Counted from the first letter of the stretch, positions 3,113-42,085 are shown. The stretch: 55,570 nt of DNA from an uncultured Candidatus Actinomarina sp. (GCA_902576605.1 CACGVI010000004.1:1-55570), one strand, 5' to 3'. Made by a program: numbers and translations. Notes: generated by a model not told the origin, from the sequence alone.

Positions 3113-3389
3113 TATATTTCAAGATATTCAAGGCACTGATTTTCAAATATCAGTGTGGAAAGAGATTGCAAAAATTCCATATGGTGAAACTCGTACATAC
3201 AAGGATCTAGCCAATGCAATAGGAAAACCTAATAGTTCTCGAGCAGTAGCGAATGCCTGTGGTAAAAATCCTTATCCTTTAACAATTCCATGTCATAGAG
3301 TTATACGCAGTGACGGAAAAATAGGCGGATACAGTGGTGAGGGTGGAATAAAAACTAAAAAGAAGCTTCTTAAACAAGAACAAGAATAA
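3096..3389 (+). CDS. ogt: Methylated-DNA--protein-cysteine methyltransferase (compact, DNA-binding/catalytic domain only)
   Basis: IPYGETRTY, RAVANAC and the active-site IPCHRV motif. Confidence 0.92.
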   Translation: MILKNNIFQDIQGTDFQISVWKEIAKIPYGETRTYKDLANAIGKPNSSRAVANACGKNPYPLTIPCHRVIRSDGKIGGYSGEGGIKTKKKLLKQEQE

Positions 3390-3503
3390 TTATTTTCTTT
3401 TACCCGTTCTGTTTGTTCTCCAATCCAGTCTCCCCCTCCGTTTTAACATATGTTTTTTCTTACGGGCCTGACGTCGGGCTTCTGTAATTTCTTTATCTGC
3501 CAT
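3390..3503 (-). CDS. Small very basic protein (37 aa)
   Basis: Manual translation MADKEITEARRQARKKKHMLKRRGRLDWRTNRTGKRK; fills the gap exactly and its stop abuts the ogt stop. Confidence 0.65.
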   Translation of the reverse strand: MADKEITEARRQARKKKHMLKRRGRLDWRTNRTGKRK

Positions 3504-3553
3504 AATTTATATTTGAATAATAATCTAATTAAAACAAAATGTTACATTGTTAT

Positions 3554-4135
3554 ATGCCATTATTAATTCGTAGATATATTCAAGCCGTCACCGGAATAAC
3601 AATGATTGGTATTGGTGTTGCATTTAATTATATGGCAAATCTTGGTTTAGGTCCTTGGGGTGTATTGCATGATGGTATATCTAAAACCATTAATATAACA
3701 TATGGTCAAGCTGGTATATTAACATCACTTATTGCCCTACTGTTATGGATTCCACTAAAGCAAAAACCTGGAATAGCAACAATCTTTGATGCATTCTGGA
3801 TAGGTTTAACAGCAGATTTTATTATTAGTATTCTTCCAGATCCTCAGACACTACTTACACAAATAGCCTATCTAGTAACTGGAATAACATTAATAGGTTT
3901 AGGAACTGCAGTATATGTTGGAGGAGACTTGGGTGCTGGCCCAAGAGATGGCATTATGGTTGGTTTAGAAAGACTTGGTCTAAAAATTGGAAATGCAAGA
4001 ACATTATTAGAATTTGTCGCATTTTCAATTGGTTTTCTTTTAGGTGGCAAAATTGGTATTGCCTCGATAATTATTGTTTTATCAATAGGTAGAGTTCTTC
4101 AAGTGTTCATGCCATTTTTTGATTTGAGAAAATAA
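3554..4135 (+). CDS. YczE/YyaS/YitT family membrane protein
   Basis: LGLGPWGVLHDG and LGAGPRDG repeats typical of the family. Start placed at ATG 3554 behind TACATT; the track gives 3539. Confidence 0.85.
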   Translation: MPLLIRRYIQAVTGITMIGIGVAFNYMANLGLGPWGVLHDGISKTINITYGQAGILTSLIALLLWIPLKQKPGIATIFDAFWIGLTADFIISILPDPQTLLTQIAYLVTGITLIGLGTAVYVGGDLGAGPRDGIMVGLERLGLKIGNARTLLEFVAFSIGFLLGGKIGIASIIIVLSIGRVLQVFMPFFDLRK

Positions 4136-4183
4136 TCAAAAATACATTAATCATTATTTTTTTCAATAGTTTATTCTGTTATT

Positions 4184-4235
4184 AGGTAATAAGCCTGTTA
4201 CCTCAAAAAAGAGTTCAGGAAACTGGACTCTTTTT
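4184..4235 (+). ncRNA. Candidate 52-nt two-hairpin small RNA
   Basis: TATTCT -10 at 4172-4177, 6-nt spacer, then hairpin AGGTAAT/GTTACCT from 4184 followed by the terminator. No known family recognised. Confidence 0.3.
4205..4235 (+). terminator. Intrinsic terminator (GAGTTCAG-GAAA-CTGGACTC then TTTTT, with a 5' A-tract)
   Basis: 8-bp stem with one G-U pair, GNRA loop, U-run at 4231-4235. Confidence 0.8.
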
Positions 4236-4281
4236 CCATTTAATCTACTTTGAACAGTGCGATATGAAAATATGACATACT

Positions 4282-4365
4282 TTGAGCCACAAAAGACTAA
4301 AGAAAGTATTTTGGCTTATAATTATTTCTTTAGCTATAAGAAATTTTGTTTTTAACCAGATGTAA
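4282..4365 (+). CDS. Possible small membrane peptide (27 aa, TTG start)
   Basis: MSHKRLKKVFWLIIISLAIRNFVFNQM: basic N-terminus followed by a hydrophobic stretch. Confidence 0.3.
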   Translation: MSHKRLKKVFWLIIISLAIRNFVFNQM

Positions 4366-4375
4366 AATATAAACT

Positions 4376-4456
4376 ATGGAACCCAAAAAAATATTATTAT
4401 TAGCGTTTGCTCTTTTAATCCCGATGTTTTTCGGTCTTTTATATTTGGTTTACTAA
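4376..4456 (+). CDS. Small membrane peptide (26 aa)
   Basis: MEPKKILLLAFALLIPMFFGLLYLVY: one TM, stop 3 nt before the aldo/keto reductase ATG. Confidence 0.5.
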   Translation: MEPKKILLLAFALLIPMFFGLLYLVY

Positions 4457-4459
4457 AAC

Positions 4460-5362
4460 ATGGACATGAATATTAACAACGTTGTACCACGTATTGGTCT
4501 TGGTACATACAATATGAGTTCTCAAGAAGCTGAAGATATATCTTACAAAGCCATTTATTACGGATACAGACATATTGATACAGCTGCTGTTTATAAAAAC
4601 GAAGATGGTGTTGGAAGGGCGTTAAAAAGGATATTTTCTGATACAGAACTCAAACGTGAAGATATAACCATATCTACAAAATTATGGCCTGGTGGTTTGG
4701 TCAAATTAGATAGAGTTAAAAACAAAGAAGGAACTGTTAAATCTCTTGAAAAAAGTCTCAGAAATTTAGACCAAGAATACGTTGATTTATACTTAATACA
4801 CTCTCCTCATGCTAAAGATAAAAGAATTGAACAGTGGGAGACGTTATTGTTTTTACAAGAAACCGGTAAGACAAAGAATGTTGGTGTTTCTAACTGGGGT
4901 ATAAACCATCTTGAAGAGCTTGTGAAAGAAGGTTTACCATTACCTTCAGCAAATCAGATCGAAATACATCCATGGTCCCAAAAACCGGAACTAGTTTCAT
5001 ATCTTAAAGATAAAGGTATTGATATTATTGCATATAGTAGTCTTGTGCCTCTTGCGACTTGGAGACATAAAGATGGTGAAAATAGTCTTAAAACTGATGA
5101 AATGTATAAGGATGGTGATGATTTAAATTCACCTTTTAAAATATTGGCTTCTAAATATCAAGTTACAGAAGCTCAAATACTTCTTAAATGGGCACTTCAA
5201 CTTGGATATGCAATATTACCCAAAAGCATACAAAAAGACCGTATGCAAGAAAATTTTGACCTTGATTTCACAATTGATAAAGAAGACATGAATTTAATCG
5301 AACAATTAGATCGTGGTGGAAGTGTCACATGGGAATATGGAGATCCACTTAAAGTAAAATAA
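4460..5362 (+). CDS. Aldo/keto reductase
   Basis: IGLGTY, GYRHIDTAAVYKNE, YVDLYLIHSP, IGVSN-like VGVSN, ANQIEIHP. Confidence 0.95.
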   Translation: MDMNINNVVPRIGLGTYNMSSQEAEDISYKAIYYGYRHIDTAAVYKNEDGVGRALKRIFSDTELKREDITISTKLWPGGLVKLDRVKNKEGTVKSLEKSLRNLDQEYVDLYLIHSPHAKDKRIEQWETLLFLQETGKTKNVGVSNWGINHLEELVKEGLPLPSANQIEIHPWSQKPELVSYLKDKGIDIIAYSSLVPLATWRHKDGENSLKTDEMYKDGDDLNSPFKILASKYQVTEAQILLKWALQLGYAILPKSIQKDRMQENFDLDFTIDKEDMNLIEQLDRGGSVTWEYGDPLKVK

Positions 5363-5415
5363 TTTAAAATAAGTAGTAATTTTTAATAAATATAAATACG
5401 CAATAAAGTTACTCC

Positions 5416-5859
5416 ATGAAGAAAATTAATTCTTTTAATGATTTGGATATTTTGATAACAAATTTTATGTCTCGTTGGGGTATTACATTATTGAGATATT
5501 CACTAGGAGTAATATACATATGGTTTGGTATTTTAAAACCCTTCGGTCTCAGCCCTGCTCAAGAATTAGTCGAAAATACTGTTTATTGGTTTGATAACCC
5601 ATCTGATTTTGTTCCTATTTTAGGTTGGTGGGAAGTATTAATTGGACTAACTATGTGCATAAAACCATTAATAAGAATTTCAATTGTTCTTCTATTCATA
5701 CAAATGCCAGGAACATTTTTACCTTTAATACTTTTTCCAGATGTATGTTTTACAACCTTTCCATTTGGATTAACGTTAGAGGGTCAATATATTGTTAAAA
5801 ATTTGATTATTATTTCTGCTGCACTAGTTGTAGGTTCGAGTGTAAGAGATGAAAGCTAG
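5416..5859 (+). CDS. DoxX/DUF417-like membrane protein
   Basis: LLRYSLGVIYIWFGILK and TLEGQYIVKNLII motifs. Confidence 0.8.
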   Translation: MKKINSFNDLDILITNFMSRWGITLLRYSLGVIYIWFGILKPFGLSPAQELVENTVYWFDNPSDFVPILGWWEVLIGLTMCIKPLIRISIVLLFIQMPGTFLPLILFPDVCFTTFPFGLTLEGQYIVKNLIIISAALVVGSSVRDES

Positions 5860-5867
5860 TTTCTAGA

Positions 5868-6068
5868 ATGATTTATATACTTATCATCGCAGCATTATTA
5901 ATTATCAACTTTACAAATATTATTTCAAAGTTAGAAAACAAGGAAAATAGAAGTAACTTTGACAACCTTATAATTGAAAATTACAAAGTAATTTTTGGTA
6001 TAGCATTTCTATTCTTTACAATATTGTTTTGGAGATATAGTTGCTTTTTTCTAGATTTTAATTGTTAA
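5868..6068 (+). CDS. Hypothetical small membrane protein
   Basis: 66 aa, two hydrophobic segments, co-oriented with the upstream genes. Confidence 0.45.
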   Translation: MIYILIIAALLIINFTNIISKLENKENRSNFDNLIIENYKVIFGIAFLFFTILFWRYSCFFLDFNC

Positions 6069-6076
6069 CTAATTAA

Positions 6077-7318
6077 TTACGAGTTTTCCCTATATATCAA
6101 TCTAGTTCCTCGCTTGTTTAAGAAAAAAGCAAATATCCACTCAATTGCAACAACAAATTTAGATTTATATCCAATAAGATAAACCAAGTGGATAAGACTC
6201 CAAAATAACCATGCTACAAAACCAGATATCTCGTATTTTCCAACTACACCTATTGCCTTAAAGCCACCAATAGTTGCCATTATGCCTTTGTCCATGTATT
6301 TAAATGGTTTCCGCTTATATTTAGGAACATCTTTTATGACATTTGATGCAACATATCTTCCCTGTTGTATAGCGACAGGAGCAATACCTGGAAGTGGATT
6401 ACCCTTTGAGTTTTTAATGATTGCTGCATCACCGATGACAAAAATATTGTCATTATCTTTAATTGAACAATCTTGATTAATAACCGCCCTTCCCTCTGAG
6501 TCTGTTTCAGTATCCAGTTTTTCTATAAGGGAACTTGCCTTATTACCAGCTGCCCAAATTATATTATCTGATATTATTTCTCCCCTATTAGTGGTGACTA
6601 TCATCTCTTTAATATTTTCAACTTTTTCATCAGTTTTAACAGTCACACCAAGTTTTTCTAAGTAAACACGAGCTTTAAATGAAAGTTTTGAGCTAAATGC
6701 AGGAAGAATCCTACTTCCAGCTTCAATTAAGTAAACTCTGGAGTCTTTACTATTAAAGTTTCTAAATTCCTTATTTATATTTTTAAATGCAATTTCAGCT
6801 ATAGAGCCTGCTAGTTCAACACCTGTTGGACCACCACCAATTACTACAAAATTTAAGTATCTTTGCCTTATACCTTTATCAATTTCATTTTCAGCTTTTT
6901 CGAAAGCTTTAAGAATTTTGTCCCTAATGTCTAATGCATCATTAATGTTTTTAAGACCATTTGAGTATGCTCCCCATTCATCATTACCAAAATATGAATA
7001 GCTTGCTCCAGTACTAATTATTAATTTATCATAATCTATCTCATCACCATTTTTTAAGATTACTTTCTTACTGTCTCTTCTTATATCTACTACTTCGCCT
7101 AATTTTATCGTTACGTTTTTATCATCTTTAAATAAATTTCTTATTGGAACTGTTATATCAGCTGGTGATAAAACCGCAGTGGCAACTTGATATAAAAGAG
7201 GTTGAAATAAATGATGATTAGTTTTATCAATTAAAGTGAATTTGTTATTACTTTTGCGCGCTTTTTTTAAAAAACTTAGCCCACCAAAACCACCGCCGAT
7301 AATAACAATATGCTCCAT
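6077..7318 (-). CDS. ndh: Type II NADH dehydrogenase
   Basis: Two Rossmann motifs (IGGGFGG, IGGGPTGVELAG), HLFQPLLYQVATA, FVIGD, C-terminal WLFWSLIHL. Confidence 0.92.
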   Translation of the reverse strand: MEHIVIIGGGFGGLSFLKKARKSNNKFTLIDKTNHHLFQPLLYQVATAVLSPADITVPIRNLFKDDKNVTIKLGEVVDIRRDSKKVILKNGDEIDYDKLIISTGASYSYFGNDEWGAYSNGLKNINDALDIRDKILKAFEKAENEIDKGIRQRYLNFVVIGGGPTGVELAGSIAEIAFKNINKEFRNFNSKDSRVYLIEAGSRILPAFSSKLSFKARVYLEKLGVTVKTDEKVENIKEMIVTTNRGEIISDNIIWAAGNKASSLIEKLDTETDSEGRAVINQDCSIKDNDNIFVIGDAAIIKNSKGNPLPGIAPVAIQQGRYVASNVIKDVPKYKRKPFKYMDKGIMATIGGFKAIGVVGKYEISGFVAWLFWSLIHLVYLIGYKSKFVVAIEWIFAFFLNKRGTRLIYRENS

Positions 7319-7321
7319 AAG

Positions 7322-7921
7322 TTAATCGAATCTGGTTGGCACTAAAATAGTTACAAAATGCGTATATGAACCCATCTTTACTTCAAATTTAACTTCTTTT
7401 TTAACTTTCTCTAATACCTCACTCATGATTGTGTAAACAAAATAGAAATTTTTGGGCATAATATCTACTGCTTGAGCACGAAAAATGCCTGTTGAACATA
7501 ATTTATAATGATTAGCGTCTCTTTCAAGTCTGAAGTGAATTTCACGTAAGCATTTAGCTTCATCCGTATCATCGTGGAACCACCATTGATTGTTCATCAT
7601 CACAACAGCACGTTTAGTATCAGGAAATTTTACTAAAGAATCAACTACATTGTTTATTTTTTGTTCCATTTCAGAAGAGTAATCTCCCTGAGAGCCTCCC
7701 CTGTATTCTGTTTCAAATAATTCTTTTTCTTTTTCTGTTACTTCTAAACCACAATTTTTTTTTGCATAATATCGCAATGAATCAATATCGAAAAGATCTG
7801 TTTCAATAATTGCATTCTCTTCATCAAAATATTCTATTTTTCCAACAAAATCATTTATTGGTGATAAGGTGTTCGAGTGTTCAAACATTTCCTTTGCACT
7901 TTTGTATATAGAGATGCTCAT
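7322..7921 (-). CDS. Divergent thymidylate synthase (ThyA)-fold protein
   Basis: INNVVDSLVKFPDTKRAVV, KCLREIHFR (Cys nucleophile position), FRAQAVDIMPKN and GSYTHFV fall in ThyA motif order, but RSxD and HxY are altered. Confidence 0.7.
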   Translation of the reverse strand: MSISIYKSAKEMFEHSNTLSPINDFVGKIEYFDEENAIIETDLFDIDSLRYYAKKNCGLEVTEKEKELFETEYRGGSQGDYSSEMEQKINNVVDSLVKFPDTKRAVVMMNNQWWFHDDTDEAKCLREIHFRLERDANHYKLCSTGIFRAQAVDIMPKNFYFVYTIMSEVLEKVKKEVKFEVKMGSYTHFVTILVPTRFD

Positions 7922-7956
7922 ATCTAATTAAACCATATGAAACGTATATATGAGCA

Positions 7957-8055
7957 CTATAAATAACTGAGGACAATCGTTGTTAACTGCCAAGTAATAA
8001 AAAGTATTATTAATGCAGTTTTTATCGAAACTTTTTTGTTTTTAAAATTTTCCAT
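7957..8055 (-). CDS. Small membrane peptide (32 aa)
   Basis: Manual translation MENFKNKKVSIKTALIILFITWQLTTIVLSYL. Confidence 0.45.
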   Translation of the reverse strand: MENFKNKKVSIKTALIILFITWQLTTIVLSYL

Positions 8056-8067
8056 AGCTTTATTCAG

Positions 8068-8961
8068 TTATTTACCTGTTAATCTTAAGGCTCTTGTAGC
8101 AATTTCTCTAATATCTGACTCATATTTTTCTATCTTTGGAATGTCCATCGGGTTTATATCATATATTGCTTTAAGCCAAATTAAGGTACCAGTATCTATA
8201 GCAATATCACCAGCATGTCCTTTTTGATCAGTAAATATTGAAGTTCTTTTTGGCCCAATTAAAGTCTTTATGTCTTGTAACTTTCCTTTTTCGAACATTT
8301 TACGCAATTCATAAACTGCCATACCATGATAAAAAGTAAATACCTCTAAGTCGTTGAATTCTTTTGAGAGACTTTTTGCAAATTCTATATATGCTAAATA
8401 CCCCATATCAGTTATATATCTATGATCGTTTACATCTTTATAATTATTTGGAAAGTCGATCCATGGCATAGCAAGACCAAATTTTGTTTCCGTATTCTTA
8501 CTAAGTGCATAATCTATTATTTCTACTATTGCTTGATCACTTTGTCCTCGACTTTCAATCAATTCTTCAGAACAACATATTAAAATAACAACATCTACAT
8601 TTCCATCATCTAAATTTTTTTTAATTTCACTTTTAACAATTGGATTTTCCCACATTGCTTGTGGCACACCATTTTCACCTCCTCGAAATACTATTCGCTG
8701 ACTATGGTCTTCTATACCAGAAAACTCTGCAAGTTTTGTGAGATTTTGAGCAAATGGCATACCAAAGCTATGTCCTGCATATAACACCGTAAGGCCTTCA
8801 ATATCTACTGAATGTTTTACTGTTGTTGAGGTAATTTTCTTAGTAGAAGTTGTTGTTACATTTCTAACTTCGTTTGCTGCAGTATCTATAGCTACAGTTT
8901 CTTCACTAGAGCCACCACATGTAACTACTAAAAGTATTAAGAGTATTGATACTTTTTTCAC
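8068..8961 (-). CDS. Lipoprotein, SGNH hydrolase-like
   Basis: Lipobox VVTC, Thr-rich linker, VLYAGHSFG block-I-like motif, distal DQKGH; GTG start. Confidence 0.65.
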   Translation of the reverse strand: MKKVSILLILLVVTCGGSSEETVAIDTAANEVRNVTTTSTKKITSTTVKHSVDIEGLTVLYAGHSFGMPFAQNLTKLAEFSGIEDHSQRIVFRGGENGVPQAMWENPIVKSEIKKNLDDGNVDVVILICCSEELIESRGQSDQAIVEIIDYALSKNTETKFGLAMPWIDFPNNYKDVNDHRYITDMGYLAYIEFAKSLSKEFNDLEVFTFYHGMAVYELRKMFEKGKLQDIKTLIGPKRTSIFTDQKGHAGDIAIDTGTLIWLKAIYDINPMDIPKIEKYESDIREIATRALRLTGK

Positions 8962-9010
8962 ATTAATTATTTTAGTTTTCTGTCCCTGTGTCTGTCTTTG
9001 TTATATTAAT

Positions 9011-10453
9011 CTACCTCTCGTAAGTTCTAGATTGATTTGTAAAATCATTTATTTCTTCTCTTTCAACATTAAAGAATATTTCAAGTTGAAGTAATCGTGT
9101 ATCTATAAGTTCAAGCATTACATAGCCTTCTACAGCGTTACCTAATGCAATACTTAATACATCATTCTCCTCATAAGGCTCTCTAAACCAATCTTTTTCT
9201 GGATTATTTTCTACAAACATTCTGAAGTTAAATAATTCATATATTTGTTTTCCTGAACCTACTTTTACCTCAAGAGGTGTAGGGTCGCCTTGGATGATAA
9301 AAGTATTTTTATAAACTTCAAGAAAACCTATACCAATTTGCCAATAAGTAGGGTCTATATCATTTAATGAAAAAGACAAATGGCCATCCCAATACTTACT
9401 TCTATCAATACCTTCATAAAAATTAGTACCAACCTCAAACCAATTTCCAGATAGGGTTCCATCAACATCGTAATTAATTTTTCCGATTCTTGGCTCAACC
9501 CTTCTCATCATTTTCTTTAATAAATTTCCTCTGATGTCATCTGGAAAATAAAGGAAAGGATCATCAGTATATATTTTCCAAGGCTCTAAGCTTTCATAAG
9601 CTTCTGGGTTAATAAAGTCAAGTGGGTTATTATAGTTATAAACTCCAAAATCTAAACTTTGTTCGCCTACATATCCGATTACTTCTCCTGCTTTCACATA
9701 AGCTCCTGTAAAATCACCGTTTTGATTTCTATTTTCTTTCCATTTTTTTTCTAATTCAGGACTTAATTTTGTTACTAGATCAAAATAACTTCCAAAAGTA
9801 CAAGTATGGACCATATCTAATCTATAGTCAGTCTCTTGTTTTTGTTGTGACTCAACACCTATATCTCTGGTTTCAATATTAAAAATAAAAGCATCTTGTA
9901 TAGCAAAAACTTCGTAAGCCTCTCTTCCGCCCTCACCTTCTAAAGAATAAAAATACATATGGTCAATTGGTGTTATATGGCCTCCAACTATCTGTCCATA
10001 GGGCATTAAAAAATTTATGTCTTCAATATTCATTGGTGAATTGTTAAACATTACTGGACCAGTACCTTCGCACTTTCCTTCCCACATTCCCCGCCATTCT
10101 TCATCTCGACCTTGTTTTTCCATGGCAAAATTATCATCTCCTGTACCATCAAGACAGTCGTAGATAAGTCCCATTTCATTATCATTAGGAGTGTATCCTC
10201 CTAAAGTTGTTTTTACGCCATTTGGCCATTTATCATTGATACATTTTTTAGCTTCCTCAGAAGCCTCTTGTAAAGCTTTAACTATTTCATTGTCTTCTGA
10301 AATTTCTTGAGAATCTTTTTTCTCAATATCTGTTTCTTCAGCAACCACATTAGATGTAGATGTGATTTTTTCTGAAGATTCGTTTACATCTAAGTTAGTG
10401 TTTTCTCCACTACAAGTAATAAAAAGTAGAAGAAATATTAAATATTTTTTCAT
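9011..10453 (-). CDS. Large lipoprotein with degenerate M23/duplicated-hybrid-like domain
   Basis: Lipobox FITC; VKAGEVIGYVG resembles the M23 peptidase core; canonical HxxxD and HxH zinc motifs not evident. Confidence 0.55.
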   Translation of the reverse strand: MKKYLIFLLLFITCSGENTNLDVNESSEKITSTSNVVAEETDIEKKDSQEISEDNEIVKALQEASEEAKKCINDKWPNGVKTTLGGYTPNDNEMGLIYDCLDGTGDDNFAMEKQGRDEEWRGMWEGKCEGTGPVMFNNSPMNIEDINFLMPYGQIVGGHITPIDHMYFYSLEGEGGREAYEVFAIQDAFIFNIETRDIGVESQQKQETDYRLDMVHTCTFGSYFDLVTKLSPELEKKWKENRNQNGDFTGAYVKAGEVIGYVGEQSLDFGVYNYNNPLDFINPEAYESLEPWKIYTDDPFLYFPDDIRGNLLKKMMRRVEPRIGKINYDVDGTLSGNWFEVGTNFYEGIDRSKYWDGHLSFSLNDIDPTYWQIGIGFLEVYKNTFIIQGDPTPLEVKVGSGKQIYELFNFRMFVENNPEKDWFREPYEENDVLSIALGNAVEGYVMLELIDTRLLQLEIFFNVEREEINDFTNQSRTYER

Positions 10454-10598
10454 GATTTAATTTTAACAACTAAAGTTATAGATTTTATCGGAGTTTTAAC
10501 TAGTTTATTAGTGAAGAGCCTATGTTTATTGTGGCCAGAGGCAAAACCGAACTTCCGTCTTCTTGTTTTTCATACAAGTGCTCACGTATAATATTTAG

Positions 10599-13207: not shown

Positions 13208-13851
13208 TAAAAAGGAACCTCTTCATATTTTCGTATAAGTGAATCATTATTATTTTTGGGATTATTCACTGCTCTGTCCACTTTATGAAATTCTATATCA
13301 TCATATGTATAGTCTAAAATCTGTGAATAAATCTCTTCACTAGATAAATCAGACACCCATAGCTCTCTTTGTTTTTCGGTAAGCAGCAATGGCGATCTGT
13401 TATGTATAGACTGTAGAGAGCTGACTGCTTCTCTTGTAATGATAGAGGTTTCAATATCGCCACTACTTCTATTCCAATAAAGACCTGCAGCAAATAATAA
13501 ACTTTCAGAAGTTTCAAAAAAATAATAAGGTTGTTTGATACCATCCTCTTCTTTCCACTCGTACCATCCAGAAATTGGAATTAAACACCTTGAGTTTTTA
13601 AAAGCTGAAGTAAATGTTTTCTTCTCAAGTAACGACTCATACCTTGTATTAAATAAAGGCCTAGGATTTGATTGACTCTTTAACCACTCTGGAAAATATC
13701 CCCAGTTAGCAATCACTAAATTATTATCAATTATGCACGGAGCCTGATTCTGTGGAGCTAGGTTGAAATTTTGTTCGAATTCGATTTCAGTAAAATTATT
13801 TACAAACGACAGTTCATCTTTTGCAATGTCAATATAGTATCTTCCACACAT
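13207..13851 (-). CDS. SOS response-associated peptidase (SRAP/YedK/HMCES family)
   Basis: N-terminal MCGRY (catalytic Cys2), FNTRYES, RCLIPISGWYEW, HNRSPL. Confidence 0.95.
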   Translation of the reverse strand: MCGRYYIDIAKDELSFVNNFTEIEFEQNFNLAPQNQAPCIIDNNLVIANWGYFPEWLKSQSNPRPLFNTRYESLLEKKTFTSAFKNSRCLIPISGWYEWKEEDGIKQPYYFFETSESLLFAAGLYWNRSSGDIETSIITREAVSSLQSIHNRSPLLLTEKQRELWVSDLSSEEIYSQILDYTYDDIEFHKVDRAVNNPKNNNDSLIRKYEEVPF

Positions 13852-14723: not shown

Positions 14724-15167
14724 TTAATTTTTTCCTGTTGAACCAAATCCACCTGTTGATCTATCAGAGATATCTAGCTCATCAACTTTTTCAAATGAAA
14801 TGCTGCCTGTAGTAATAGTTACTAATTGAGCAACTCTCTCATTTTGTGAAACGGTATACACTTCATTTGAATAGTTCATTAAAGGAACCAATAATTCTCC
14901 TGTATACCCCGGATCAATCAGGCCTGGAGCATTGATTGGAGCAACTAGATTCTTACTAGCTAGTCCAGATCTTGGTAAAACAAACCCTGCAACATTTTTT
15001 GGTAATTGAATTGCTATACCTAAATTTACAAGTACAACTTTTTGCGGTTCGATGATATACTCTCCGTCTGAATAAAGATCATATCCAATGTCATCTTCAT
15101 GACTTTTACTTGGTATTTTTCCAAATTCATTAAGAATCTTTATTTTTATATTAAAATAACTTTGCAG
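14724..15167 (-). CDS. dut: dUTP diphosphatase (non-canonical start codon)
   Basis: Manual translation shows all five motifs: IGYDL, PRSGL, PGLIDPGYTGE, RVAQL, RSTGGFGSTG. No in-frame ATG, GTG or TTG upstream; CTG at 15167 has a GAAAGGG SD. Confidence 0.92.
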   Translation of the reverse strand: MQSYFNIKIKILNEFGKIPSKSHEDDIGYDLYSDGEYIIEPQKVVLVNLGIAIQLPKNVAGFVLPRSGLASKNLVAPINAPGLIDPGYTGELLVPLMNYSNEVYTVSQNERVAQLVTITTGSISFEKVDELDISDRSTGGFGSTGKN

Positions 15168-38108: not shown

Positions 38109-39341
38109 ATGGAAAATTTTCAAAAATATAGAGTATTATTAACGCAAAATCAAAACTTTCGTAAACTTTTTGCAGCTCGTTTAATCACATTAGGCGGAGA
38201 CTGGTTATTAACTGTACCACTCTTAGGCATAATATACGAGTTGACTGAAAATCCATTTATAACATCTCTTGTATTAGTAGTTCAGAGTGCACCATTATTC
38301 ATGCTTGGAAGCTTTGGTGGTTACTTAGCAGATAGATTTGATAGAAAAAAAATAATCGCAATTTCAGAGTTCTTATCAGGAATGACTGTGTTGTTAATTC
38401 TATATGCAGTCACAACTGAAAACGTAGTATTTATTTTGTTTTCATTTGGATTACTTTCAGTTGTAGGTTCTCCATACATGCCTACTTCTGATGCGGCTTT
38501 GCCTAATGTAGTTAAAAAAGAAAACTTAGCCGAAGCTAATGTTATTTTTTTCTCAAGTTGGGGTGTAATGGCTGGTCTTGGTGCTGGTCTTGGTGGATAT
38601 TTAACAACAGTAATCAGTAGAAACATGTTATTTGCAATCGATAGTTTAACTTTTGTTCTTTCTGCTTTAATTGTCTTTTCTATAAAAAAAAATTTAAGCG
38701 AAAAATCTCAAAATAAAAATCAAGAGGAAGATATTAGCTATAAAGAAGGTCTTAAATATGCTGCATCTAGAAGAGAAATTTTTTCCTTAATTATTACAAA
38801 AGCAACATTTAGTATCTCCGCTAGCGGTCTACTGTCTTTATTTACTGTACTTTCATATGATATATACAAAACTGGTGACTTTGGTACGGGGCTTATGTTT
38901 GGTGCAAGAGGTGTTGGTGCGCTTATTGGTCCAATTGCTATTAGATATTTTTTTGGAAGCACAGATGGAAAACTGTTAAATACAATTGGAATAACCATCA
39001 TGGCATGGGGTTTATTCTATTTCTTTATACCGTTTTCACTATCTCTTTACCTAACAGTGTTGTTATTAATTCTTGGACACTCTGGTGGTGGATCTCAGTG
39101 GGCATTTTCTACATATGGACTACAAGTACTCACGCCAGATAGGCTCAGGGGAAGAATTGCTGGGATTGATTACTCACTTTATTTTCTAATGAATACAATT
39201 TCAACTCTAATGATTGGATACCTTGCAACTATATATGGGGTACTTTTTGTCTTTAAACTGTTTCCAGTAATAGGATTTTTATTCGGATTTGTTTGGTATT
39301 TATCCACAAGAAATATCTGGAAGAATTTAGATAAATCCTAA
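38109..39341 (+). CDS. MFS transporter (macrolide-efflux/DHA3-like)
   Basis: 12 TM pattern; GYLADRFDRKKI motif A; LRGR in the C-terminal half. Confidence 0.9.
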   Translation: MENFQKYRVLLTQNQNFRKLFAARLITLGGDWLLTVPLLGIIYELTENPFITSLVLVVQSAPLFMLGSFGGYLADRFDRKKIIAISEFLSGMTVLLILYAVTTENVVFILFSFGLLSVVGSPYMPTSDAALPNVVKKENLAEANVIFFSSWGVMAGLGAGLGGYLTTVISRNMLFAIDSLTFVLSALIVFSIKKNLSEKSQNKNQEEDISYKEGLKYAASRREIFSLIITKATFSISASGLLSLFTVLSYDIYKTGDFGTGLMFGARGVGALIGPIAIRYFFGSTDGKLLNTIGITIMAWGLFYFFIPFSLSLYLTVLLLILGHSGGGSQWAFSTYGLQVLTPDRLRGRIAGIDYSLYFLMNTISTLMIGYLATIYGVLFVFKLFPVIGFLFGFVWYLSTRNIWKNLDKS

Positions 39342-39350
39342 ATAAGTTCA

Positions 39351-40214
39351 TCAGATGGAAAAAAGATTTTTTCCTTCAAATTTTTTTGTACCATTCACAT
39401 AGCTAAAGTACTTTCTGCATTCACAAGATTGATACTCTATGTCAATAGGATAAAACTCTCTTTTAGCTTCAGGCCAATACTCTCCTTGAAGTTCTATCAT
39501 TTTAAGGCCTACATCTTGGTGGCTATTTAAATTGAGAAAATTTTGGAGCCTATCTAAATATGGTTCTGCACCAATGCCAGTTGGAACATCAGTGGTAATT
39601 GGTATAACATCTTCTCTAAACCAGGCAATATCTATCAAAGCCATAAATATTGGGAAGTCATTATTCATCTTAAATTGCATATTTATATTGTTTGTAGCAG
39701 TAATAACATCTCTATTAGAATTTAAAACTATTTCAGCTAACTCTTCTTTTTTTTCATAAAATTTGTATGTGGCTGCATCTATTCGTCTATATAAATTTTG
39801 ATTCCAATATGAATCTTCTACTGGGTATGCTGTGAAATTCTCCCACTGCTCTAAACTAAGAAGCCTCTCTTTTAAAGCTTCTGGATTACTTAAATCATTT
39901 ATCGTTAACTGATCAATAGTTAAATCTCTGTTGCACCACCTACTAAAAAATAAAGATTGGATTAACAAAGGTAAATCCTCTTTTGCTGGTTCAGCAAATT
40001 TAATAATGGATTTACTTACTTTGTCATCCTCTCTAAAAACATTTAAAAAACGACCTTTTTGTAAAATTGGATCATCACTCCAGGGATATACTTCTCCTGA
40101 CTCTCTTTTAATACGTACTGCTTCACGTTTCTTGCAGTAATCAAAAAAGCTTTGTACTGGGTCATCTATTTCAAGACCATCTAGTGAGTGTGCATATGGA
40201 TTCTCTAAAACCAT
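39351..40214 (-). CDS. 5-hmdU DNA kinase helical-domain (aGPT-Pplase1)-like protein
   Basis: N-terminal REAVRIKRESGEVYPWSDDPILQKGRFLNVFREDDK and C-terminal DIEYQSCECRKY match remembered family motifs; no P-loop. Confidence 0.78.
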   Translation of the reverse strand: MVLENPYAHSLDGLEIDDPVQSFFDYCKKREAVRIKRESGEVYPWSDDPILQKGRFLNVFREDDKVSKSIIKFAEPAKEDLPLLIQSLFFSRWCNRDLTIDQLTINDLSNPEALKERLLSLEQWENFTAYPVEDSYWNQNLYRRIDAATYKFYEKKEELAEIVLNSNRDVITATNNINMQFKMNNDFPIFMALIDIAWFREDVIPITTDVPTGIGAEPYLDRLQNFLNLNSHQDVGLKMIELQGEYWPEAKREFYPIDIEYQSCECRKYFSYVNGTKKFEGKNLFSI

Positions 40215-40248
40215 AACATTAATTTAAACAGATTACTTCATACTTTTC

Positions 40249-41514
40249 TTACTTCACAACTGGTATTTGAAGCATATTTGTTGTGTAAGCAGCAGACTTT
40301 CTTTCCGACTTCATTCTCCAATCTTTTTTTATACCCTGTGCTCCCAGTGTTAATGTGCTTGATCCATACCTGGTATTAACCCCGTCCAGTACCTCCATGA
40401 CACGGTCTGATTGATCGTAGTTCTCATATTCGTAAAAACTGTACTGTTCGTTCTCTGCGTCAGTGATGTCTAGCAGCATTACACCAATTTTCTGGTACTC
40501 ATATCCGTACACAAAGAGTTTTCTTGTTAAGTATTTTGCTTCTTTGACAATCTTTGACGTATTGCTTGTTGGTATTGAAAAAAATGTACTCATACCGTTG
40601 CTATATCTTTTATCTGGATCAACAAATGGACTGGTTCTTAAAAATACATACAAGCCTTGTGCTCTAGAACCCTGTGCTCTCAACTTCTCACATGCTCTAG
40701 CAACATAGTTAGAAACAGCTTCCTCTAACTCACTTACTAGCATTACTTTTCTACCAAATGACTTAGAGGATATGATGTTTTTCTTATTCTTCACCTCTTC
40801 TATGCCAATACAGGAAATCCCATTTAGCTCATGATGTATCCTCTCCCCTACAATGCTGATTGTTTTTCTGACATAACGAGCATTTGCCTTCGTTAAATCA
40901 TAAGCGGTATCTACTCCAATTTTTCGAAGCCTTCTTCCCCATCTTGTCGAGATTCCCCATATCTCTTCAAGTGGTAGATCTTTTAAAATCTCATCTCTTA
41001 CACTCTGATCTCGTATATCGAAGACATTAGATGTTGTGTATTTTTTAGCTTGTCTGTTTGCTACTTTTGCCAATGTCTTTGTTGGGCCTATGCCTATAGA
41101 AACTGGAATCCCTGTCCACTGTTTAATTAATCTTCGTATCTCTTGAGCCGTCTCTTCTAAATCACAGTAGTAAAAGCTACTGATATCGAGAAACGCTTCA
41201 TCAATAGAGTAAATCTCTATATCGCTTACAAGAGATTTCAGTGAAGTCATCACTCTGGCCGACATATCACCATAAAAAGTGTAGTTTGATGAAAATACAT
41301 GAACTCTGTTTCTATTGATAAGTTGTTTGTATTTAAAGTACGGGGCTCCCATCGGTATGCCTAAAGCTTTTGCTTCATTTGATCTAGCAACAACACATCC
41401 ATCATTGTTAGACAAAACAACAATGGGCTTTCCTTCTAGCTTTGGGTTGAATACTCTCTCACAAGACGCATAAAAGTTATTACAGTCCACTAGGGCAAAA
41501 ATTTTATTATTCAC
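40249..41514 (-). CDS. umuC: Y-family DNA polymerase V catalytic subunit
   Basis: [32 protein letters not shown]-terminal [14 protein letters not shown]; GTG start with AAGGAG SD. Confidence 0.95.
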
Positions 41515-41528
41515 TTACTTACTCCTTT

Positions 41529-41546
41529 GAATACTGTACACTATTC
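41529..41546. promoter_or_regulatory. 18-bp imperfect palindrome (GAATACTGTACACTATTC), candidate operator of the umuC/umuD divergon
   Basis: Matches its reverse complement at 16 of 18 positions and overlaps TACACT (+) and TAGAAT/TACAGT (-) -10-like hexamers. Confidence 0.6.
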
Positions 41547-41569
41547 TAAGAAAAAAGAAAGACATTTTT

Positions 41570-42085
41570 ATGCCACGAGGTGGAGCAAGAAAAGGAGCCG
41601 GTAGGCCAAAAGGTCAAGGCAAGTATGGAGAGCAGACAAAAGCTGTCCGTATTCCTGTAAGTAAGATTAAGTATATCTCTGAGGTCATCAACAAAGGCTT
41701 ATATGAAGTACCAATGTATAGCAATAAAGTTGCAGCTGGGTTCCCGTCCCCTGCAGACGACTATTTAGAAGACAAAATAGATTTAAATCAATATTTGGTA
41801 AAACATCCCGCTTCTACATTTTTGGTAAGAGCATCCGGAGAGTCCATGATTAATGCTGGTATATTTCCAGACGATATCTTAGTAGTAGACAGAAGCTTAA
41901 AAGCTGAAGATGGAAAAGTAGTCATTGCTGTTGTAGATAATGAACTGACTGTAAAAAGATATCGCAAAAAAGGCAAGAGCATAATTTTAGAGCCAGAAAA
42001 TGAAACGTTTGATTCAATTGTTATTCCCCGTGAAAGTGAGGCTTTCGTTTGGGGAGTCGTTACAAATGTTATTCATAACTTATAA
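41570..42085 (+). CDS. umuD: UmuD-family S24 autopeptidase with basic N-terminal extension
   Basis: VAAGFPSPA cleavage site, GESM Ser, TVKR Lys; about 45 extra N-terminal residues (PRGGARKGAGRPKG...TKAVRIP). Confidence 0.92.
   Translation: MPRGGARKGAGRPKGQGKYGEQTKAVRIPVSKIKYISEVINKGLYEVPMYSNKVAAGFPSPADDYLEDKIDLNQYLVKHPASTFLVRASGESMINAGIFPDDILVVDRSLKAEDGKVVIAVVDNELTVKRYRKKGKSIILEPENETFDSIVIPRESEAFVWGVVTNVIHNL

Follow-up and report, generated by a model that had tools for sequence, protein, structure and literature searches.

A stand-alone HMUDK_hel protein, related to passengers of phage thymidine-hypermodification clusters, is a core gene of Candidatus Actinomarina

What does a protein domain known from phage thymidine-hypermodification clusters do in the chromosome of a streamlined marine bacterium? 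The question is raised by a gene on the minus strand at 39351..40214 of a 55,570-nucleotide stretch of DNA from an uncultured Candidatus Actinomarina sp. (GCA_902576605.1 CACGVI010000004.1:1-55570), the whole of which is termed the window here. The gene has an ATG start and encodes a 287-residue protein without a kinase domain, a stand-alone member of the HMUDK_hel family (PF18723, formerly aGPT-Pplase clade 1); gene and product are referred to below as the helical gene and the helical protein. PF18723 was previously known only as an unexplained passenger of the phage clusters. The same domain proves to be a core, strongly constrained gene in two streamlined bacterial groups that rank among the most abundant in the ocean, and it is widespread in bacteria as a fusion to a different P-loop kinase, with no phage partner genes found. 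A cellular core gene, together with fusions that lack phage partners, implies a role for the family in cells that has nothing to do with the evasion of restriction.

Membership of PF18723 is beyond chance. The helical protein scores 63.6 bits against a curated cut-off of 25 (E 2.4e-17), with the HMMER alignment lying mainly on residues 20-72 and a second stretch reported at a loose threshold. Nothing else of note is found in Pfam, even at E <= 10. In particular, the profile PF18724 (ADDT, aGPT-Pplase2) is not matched at that level, while the phage amino-acid:DNA transferase (AADT) PaMx11 gp46 itself scores 97 bits against it. The PHROGs match is phrog_2396; there are no matches in NCBIfam, none among the families of the PADLOC-DB 2.0 defence profiles, and nothing meaningful from sequence and profile searches of the PDB. 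The first-pass annotation, made from the sequence alone, had given the family two names, a 5-hydroxymethyldeoxyuridine (5-hmdU) kinase helical domain and aGPT-Pplase1. Pseudanabaena phage Pam3 gp50 (Pam3_50) is annotated 'aGPT-Pplase1' and matches PF18723, and the double name is therefore correct; phage annotators still use the older form. Homologues carry the NCBI label 'putative DNA base hypermodification protein'. The further description of the product as stand-alone and without a P-loop is also borne out, as PF18723 is the only family matched, no kinase or P-loop family is detected and no Walker A motif is visible.

Thirty family members, drawn from Actinomarina, unidentified metagenomic bacteria and phage-like sequences and with identities as low as 22%, align collinearly from end to end. 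The alignment contains nine invariant residues (R30, D48, R61, D64, Y130, G215, C264, E265 and K268), all of which are present in the helical protein. The two motifs singled out from the sequence alone are found where expected: PWSDDPILQKGRFLNVFREDD corresponds to residues 44-64 (40023..40085, minus strand), in which P44, W45, D48, F56, N58, R61 and D64 are invariant or nearly so, and DIEYQSCECRKY to residues 258-269 (39408..39443, minus strand), with the pattern D258-x-E260-x3-C264-E265-x2-K268-Y269. Between them lies G213-I-G215 (39570..39578, minus strand), of which G213 is nearly invariant in the family alignment; it precedes a helix at residues 217-227 of the structural model and is probably the hairpin of a helix-hairpin-helix (HhH) element.

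In Actinomarina the helical gene is a core housekeeping gene under purifying selection. It is present as a single copy in 57 of 63 species genomes, including all 12 that are at least 90% complete, and the copies are always ~290 residues long with no kinase part. Ratios of non-synonymous to synonymous substitution (dN/dS) against congeners are 0.09-0.26 for the helical gene and 0.03-0.07 for the adjacent umuC. Genomes of the genus are ~1.0-1.1 Mb in size, and the G+C content (GC) of the window is roughly 27-37%. Close homologues bear the name of this genus, and its loci on genome contigs belong to single-cell and metagenome assemblies. Only four other carriers of PF18723 are found among 401 sampled Actinomycetota genomes, and these have distant, canonical versions; G219, which is among the four, is an unpublished genome, and nothing but this count depends on it. 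In another of the four the gene lies in an island (L046; G287:C2, ~5283-10578), a consecutive series of a helix-turn-helix (HTH) gene, an ImmA/IrrE peptidase, a papain-like open reading frame (ORF), a divergent thymidylate-synthase-like gene, the canonical PF18723 gene (302 bits) and, last, a TylF-like methyltransferase. The layout resembles that of a prophage or defence island and differs from the setting in Actinomarina.

A search with the pattern FxN[IV]FR[EQ]DD, which derives from a narrower alignment, gave 169 relatives on genome contigs, and the locus results refer to the best 80 of these 169. In Marinimicrobia (SAR406), stand-alone copies 54-63% identical to the helical protein are found in 20 of 201 sampled genomes (loci L139-L170). 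They lie 3' of lptF/G, beside genes for inositol-phosphate synthase and a nucleotidyltransferase, or 3' of genes for GDPD and an Old Yellow Enzyme. Because copies this similar occur in another phylum and in three unrelated contexts, it is suggested that the helical gene has been transferred between these co-occurring ocean lineages. Other stand-alone copies lie on marine contigs of 30-45% GC, with different neighbours again. It was also considered whether the gene came recently from a phage, or whether its contig was a mis-binned phage sequence. IMG/VR contains no close relative of the marine clade when searched with the window protein and the fused protein P0121, which argues against both; in Actinomarina and Marinimicrobia the gene is surrounded by chromosomal housekeeping genes.

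The nearest relatives outside these two groups are proteins of ~487 residues in which HMUDK_hel is fused to an AAA_28 P-loop kinase. This architecture is found in ~100 of the 120 clusters listed (at 90% identity), on contigs of up to 248 kb. The fusions come from organisms of 54-63% GC labelled Myxococcota or Proteobacteria, whereas the stand-alone forms come from genomes of 30-45% GC. Among the fusions 80 helical-domain columns are invariant; at least 90% of the Actinomarina copies retain 73 of these, and the Marinimicrobia copies retain 77. The constraints on the helical domain therefore do not depend on whether the kinase is present. Within this mostly marine cellular branch, in which the fusion is the usual form, the low-GC streamlined lineages (Actinomarina, part of Marinimicrobia and others) retain the helical domain only.

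The C-terminal kinase of the fusions is ~190 residues long and matches AAA_28 with 79-89 bits. It is NadR- or nucleoside monophosphate (NMP)-kinase-like, and differs from the phage 5-hmdU DNA kinase of PF18748 (P0121, P0123, P0280-P0397; L181-L188, L200). One locus, L200, has a split version, in which a 295-residue helical gene is followed by a gene for a 228-residue kinase. The model of the fusion P0300 has a predicted local distance difference test score (pLDDT) of 88 and a predicted template-modelling score (pTM) of 0.83, and a fold search with the fused model returned generic NMP-kinase-fold relatives for the kinase domain, which do not separate DNA from nucleotide substrates. No P-loop kinase domain is found in the helical ORF or its neighbours, and a search of 65 Actinomarinales genomes with the kinase portion of P0121 gave no match. 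In the window's own genome AAA_28 matches were all below the cut-off, PF18748 not having been searched for genome-wide.

The AlphaFold2 model of the helical protein (pLDDT 95.3, pTM 0.91) is almost all-helical. Foldseek finds no match for it in the PDB at E <= 0.001. In an exhaustive VIA search, the best solved match is PaMx11 gp46 (8z2m; Z 8.4, root-mean-square deviation 4.3, 206 residues aligned), followed by the queuosine-5'-monophosphate glycosylase Qng1 (7u07 and 7ugk; Z 8.0 and 7.7) and then by a run of HhH-type DNA glycosylases; the top sixteen rows belong to one fold class, with Z values that are modest for helical proteins. The viral models (BFVD) include seven matches at E <= 0.001; TM scores on the query range from 0.57 to 0.72 for the top seven. 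The best is a 5-hmdU DNA kinase fusion of phage SP10 (E 3.3e-7, TM 0.72), ranks 1-3 and 7 are annotated as 5-hmdU DNA kinases or helical-domain proteins, and further matches include 'helical domain' proteins of phiRSL1, PhiW-14 and a Nodularia phage. The helical protein is thus predicted to adopt a helix-hairpin-helix, DNA-glycosylase-like fold. It does not match the HhH-GPD profile PF00730, and the family alignment contains no invariant acidic residue between G215 and D258, the region that, by sequence spacing, corresponds to that of the HhH-GPD catalytic Asp, 15-25 residues after the hairpin.

The structural match to gp46 includes the helix that carries the C-terminal motif. When the family was aligned by hhalign with four aGPT-Pplase2 (ADDT) proteins, a single local match was obtained, and it fell on this motif (E 0.046, probability ~1%, hence weak). 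It pairs D258-x-E260-x3-C264...K268 with E241-x-E243-T244-x2-C247...K250 of gp46, such that E260 corresponds to E243 and C264 to C247; the position of T244 is occupied by Tyr in the Actinomarina protein. In the crystal structure of gp46 with DNA, E243 and T244 hold a metal that contacts O4 of the thymine, while the flipped base is clamped by C247 (PMC11472151). In the YuA enzyme, the Glu/Thr pair that binds the metal is essential (PMC13458397). As the residues that match gp46 are invariant in PF18723 and are accompanied by the G-x-G hairpin at 213-215, this alignment suggests that the family has a base-binding, and probably catalytic, pocket homologous to that of gp46.

These observations lead to a proposal that is held with somewhat more belief than doubt: the helical protein would have a housekeeping role in DNA, with a metal/Cys pocket like that of the AADT enzymes, in which a flipped 5-substituted uracil or thymine would be bound and probably processed. 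The conserved pocket would match the base-holding residues of AADT enzymes, with a metal-binding Glu and, four residues on, a base-clamping Cys. The substrate may be a 5-substituted uracil or thymine of the hydroxymethyl or phosphomethyl type, that is, an oxidised thymine; these groups are proposed because the kinase step has been lost, or is separate, in comparison with the fused relatives. The base would be flipped out of DNA, a free nucleotide being less likely, and the role is envisaged as repair or sanitation rather than hypermodification of the host genome.

Does the position of the helical gene beside umuC bear on this role? As the first-pass annotation had stated, umuC is on the same strand and the gap between its stop codon and the helical start, read from the sequence, is exactly 34 bp (40215..40248, minus strand). 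umuC (40249..41514, minus strand) encodes the catalytic subunit of DNA polymerase V (Pol V) and matches the Pfam families IMS, IMS_C and DUF4113 and the NCBIfam family NF002955 (421 bits). No promoter-like or terminator-like site is seen in the 34-bp spacer, and the helical gene may be co-transcribed with umuC by read-through. On its other side the helical gene converges with a major facilitator superfamily (MFS) transporter gene (38109..39341, plus strand; MFS_1 and MFS_3).

A comparison of the locus in 58 Actinomarina species genomes reveals three arrangements. The window's layout (umuD<>umuC>gene<MFS) is found in 29 species. In ~24 the helical gene instead follows pyrimidine genes and a phosphoribosyltransferase (PRTase)-like ORF (carB-pyrF-pyrD-(PRTase-like ORF)>gene<rpiB<fumC), and in four it follows the operon of a Bmp/PnrA-type nucleoside ATP-binding cassette (ABC) transporter and again faces rpiB. 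The five species checked among those with the pyr context (L049-L053) have an intact umuDC elsewhere, with the same operator core and directly abutting the MFS gene, and so display an empty site. The window's genome displays the corresponding empty site at the other locus (G000:C5:28460-31917), where pyrF, pyrD and a 129-residue ORF end 8 bp from the convergent rpiB; this PRTase-like ORF has a weak phosphoribosyl-pyrophosphate-binding (Pribosyltran) motif. As the empty sites are clean at both loci, it follows that one gene alone was relocated, between the convergent ends of two operons. At the third kind of locus, exemplified by L020 of genome G003 (3326-7857), the helical gene comes immediately after the transporter operon; in the window's genome transporter permease genes (G000:C5:19745-21716) are found ~7 kb upstream of the pyr genes.

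A maximum-likelihood protein tree, for which fused and outgroup forms served as root, places copies with the pyr context on the basal Actinomarina branches and those with the umuC context in two separate clades. On this gene tree the umuC context would be derived and polyphyletic, a pattern that within-genus recombination could also explain. Because the umuC context falls in two clades, the adjacency represents one event or two and should not be counted as 29 independent cases. The helical protein is thus not an obligate partner of Pol V, and the adjacency to umuC says little about function beyond probable read-through transcription. The adjacency that had drawn attention to the gene is therefore real, but its presence in only half of the species, in a derived and polyphyletic form, argues little for a tie to translesion synthesis.

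umuC is separated by a control region (41515..41569) from a divergent umuD-like gene (41570..42085, plus strand), which encodes an S24 peptidase (Peptidase_S24; NF007621, 160 bits) with a basic N-terminal extension of 47 residues (RGGARKGAGRPKG...). The control region contains an imperfect palindrome, GAATACTGTACACTATTC, at 41529-41546. Across loci the umuC/umuD spacer is 54-59 bp long, and its core, CTTTGAATACTGTACACTATTCTAA, shows no difference among the 22 Actinomarina loci compared, even where umuC identity is down to 77%; the flanking bases vary slightly. A wider SOS regulon acting through the palindrome was considered and rejected, as the 18-mer has no further copy in the window's genome at up to three mismatches. 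The arrangement fits less well with a general SOS box than with a UmuD-like protein that would act as a dedicated self-repressor.

The first-pass annotation had also connected the helical gene with a compact ThyA-like (ThyA-fold) ORF (7322-7921, minus strand), with dut (14733-15119) and with an SRAP gene (13258-13851), suggesting that the host might make, sense or repair modified pyrimidines with their help. Its own caveat, that operon structure gives no link to the ThyA-like gene, was apt, as the two lie 31.4 kb apart. The proposed system itself is not supported, since the ThyA-like gene does not travel with the helical gene. In contrast to the near-universal helical gene, the ThyA-like gene is found in only four of the 27 Actinomarina genomes that are at least 85% complete (G000, G072, G002 and G049, at 60-92% identity), and is thus accessory in the genus; it was found neither in the five Marinimicrobia genomes that carry a 60%-identical helical gene nor in the four other PF18723-bearing genomes of Actinomycetota. 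Both dut and SRAP are generic housekeeping genes of an ordinary kind, ~25 kb from the helical gene. The neighbourhood of umuC and the ThyA-like gene should not, then, be read as one 'modified-pyrimidine' system.

ThyX, present in 25 of the 27 genomes, supplies ordinary deoxythymidine monophosphate (dTMP), and PF00303 (deoxyuridine monophosphate (dUMP) hydroxymethylase/ThyA) has no match in any of the 27. A helical gene that compensates for a missing thymidylate synthase was considered and rejected, given ThyX. So was a replacement for a missing uracil or HhH glycosylase, as uracil-DNA glycosylase (UDG) and two to three HhH-GPD glycosylase genes are present.

How far, then, can the binding and processing of a flipped, 5-substituted base be trusted? 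Several points weigh against it. A Z of about 8 between helical proteins can reflect a common arrangement only, and the motif match to gp46 is statistically weak at the E value given above. The processing of a 5-substituted uracil would follow from homology and phage context only. In Actinomarina no source of 5-hydroxymethyluracil (5-hmU) and no partner kinase were found. The marine helical proteins are acidic (isoelectric point (pI) 4.7-5.2, 4.8 for the Actinomarina protein, against 5.7 for gp46 and 6.7-8.8 for the phage PF18723 proteins), which is unusual though not disqualifying for DNA binders. In the phage systems, kinase activity has been assigned to the P-loop protein alone, and M6 gp55 is dispensable for the kinase and transferase steps in vitro (PMC8989533); there is therefore no PF18723 protein with a known activity. 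Finally, the similarity to Qng1 and the pyrimidine-operon and nucleoside-transporter contexts would fit a substrate at the nucleotide level about as well.

This last point leads to an alternative that is given a minor but real share of belief, in which the helical protein would be an N-glycosidase or transferase of the Qng1 kind, with a free, possibly modified, pyrimidine nucleoside monophosphate as its substrate, in pyrimidine salvage or pool sanitation, with the fused AAA_28 domain providing a nucleoside-kinase step. The Z values of Qng1 are comparable to those of the DNA enzymes, the acidity of the protein is in keeping with it, the fused kinase is of a small-molecule NMP-kinase, NadR or deoxynucleoside-kinase (dNK) type, and the likely ancestral context is the tail of the pyr operon, which, like the nucleoside transporter operon in the four species, converges with rpiB. 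These contexts are not conserved outside Actinomarina, however, and the Marinimicrobia neighbours differ. The kinase type is not discriminating either, as phage DNA kinases likewise have an NMP-kinase-like fold. Moreover, all studied members of the wider superfamily branch (AADT and 5-HMUDK) act on DNA (PMC8989533, PMC11472151), and the invariant G-x-G hairpin fits binding of the DNA backbone. An improbable reading is the modified-pyrimidine system described above, with the ThyA-like gene, dut and SRAP and with a coupling to umuC, for example in translesion synthesis past modified thymine. The close same-strand spacing, free of a terminator-like site, and the umuC>gene order in half of the species are in its favour, as is the fact that PF18723 genes adjoin thymidylate-synthase homologues in phages and in the island L046; it founders on the lack of co-occurrence, on the intact umuDC with the same operator lying against the MFS gene without the helical gene at the five loci checked, on the derived and polyphyletic umuC context and on the generic nature and distance of dut and SRAP.

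Marginally less probable again is anti-phage defence, in which the helical protein would sense or attack phage DNA containing 5-hmU or hypermodified thymine. Domains of the 5-hmU-kinase and thymidylate-synthase types occur in validated E. coli systems, and aGPT-Pplase domains in predicted ones (PMC13092281), and the HTH/ImmA-ThyA-like-PF18723-methyltransferase layout of L046 is of this kind. The Actinomarina gene, on the other hand, has no PADLOC match, no effector partner and housekeeping neighbours in place of defence islands, and as a single-copy core gene it is under strong purifying selection and retained in streamlined genomes of ~1 Mb. Hypermodification of the host's own thymines, as the family name and the NCBI label would imply, is given hardly any credence. 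No 5-hmdU DNA kinase was found, the AAA_28 search giving sub-threshold matches only, and no PF00303 dUMP hydroxymethylase/ThyA was found, ordinary dTMP being made by ThyX. The window protein also has no match to PF18724, AADT and the TET/JBP dioxygenases not having been searched for genome-wide.

A broader and frankly speculative idea may also be entertained, although it is improbable. Hypermodifying phages turn leftover 5-hmdU into thymine by a chemistry that proceeds through a phosphomethyl intermediate. The cellular HMUDK_hel proteins, whether fused to AAA_28 or kinase-less as in Actinomarina and SAR406, might by analogy constitute an undescribed housekeeping pathway for oxidised thymine (5-hydroxymethyluracil), in which the lesion would be flipped into the AADT-like metal/Cys pocket and reversed or replaced via a phosphomethyl intermediate. 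On this view, the enzymes with which phages hypermodify their DNA would have branched off from a cellular enzyme of repair or sanitation.

Cellular homologues of the family have been mentioned in passing (PMC5889632, PMC9599517), and the family and its NCBI label already exist; neither the clade of kinase-less core genes nor the fusions to AAA_28 were found described in the literature. What is new here is the fused sister clade, the two empty sites, the failure of the ThyA-like gene to co-occur and the motif that may be common to the family and gp46. The cellular proteins are small and easily expressed, and offer a means of working out the activity of the whole family, including M6 gp55 and PaMx11 gp50.

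Among the closest known systems are the stand-alone PF18723 proteins of phages, namely PaMx11 gp50, M6 gp55, Stenotrophomonas phage Sonora gp42 and Pam3 gp50. Like the Actinomarina protein they stand alone, are ~290-340 residues long and have all of the family-invariant residues; they score 141-177 bits against the Pfam family, and BLASTP aligns the Actinomarina protein with PaMx11 gp50 over the N-terminal signature (E 6e-11). They are, however, only ~24-27% identical to the Actinomarina protein, and their genes always lie directly 3' of a P-loop 5-hmdU DNA kinase (PF18748), beside a thymidylate-synthase homologue and an AADT gene (PaMx11 gp49-gp50-gp51, Sonora gp41-gp42, Pam3 gp49-gp50). No such partners were found near the helical gene or in its genome, PF18748 and PF18724 not having been searched for genome-wide. 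The top BFVD match, Bacillus phage SP10 gp186, differs in being a 637-residue fusion with a 5-hmdU DNA kinase, whose kinase domain is active alone (PMC8989533). Closer in sequence are the cellular fusions P0121, P0123 and P0300 (labelled 'nucleotide kinase domain-containing protein' by NCBI), which are marine and chromosomal and 52-55% identical over the whole helical domain, but unlike the Actinomarina protein carry the AAA_28 kinase.

The enzymes of known activity are more distant. Qng1/DUF2419 and the HhH-GPD enzymes (AGOG, Mag1, AlkA, EndoIII and OGG1) have in common with the helical protein a helical HhH-type fold (Z 5-8); in HhH-GPD enzymes a catalytic Asp follows the hairpin, whereas the helical protein has neither a PF00730 match nor a family-invariant Asp there. 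PaMx11 gp46 (PUGT), a 5-phosphomethyl-deoxyuridine glycinyltransferase, belongs to a different Pfam family (PF18724) and has no detectable sequence similarity to the helical protein outside the motif; it requires 5-phosphomethyl-deoxyuridine made by a kinase, and no such kinase was found in Actinomarina. A [DE]-x-E-x3-C...K motif in the C-terminal helix may be common to the two proteins.

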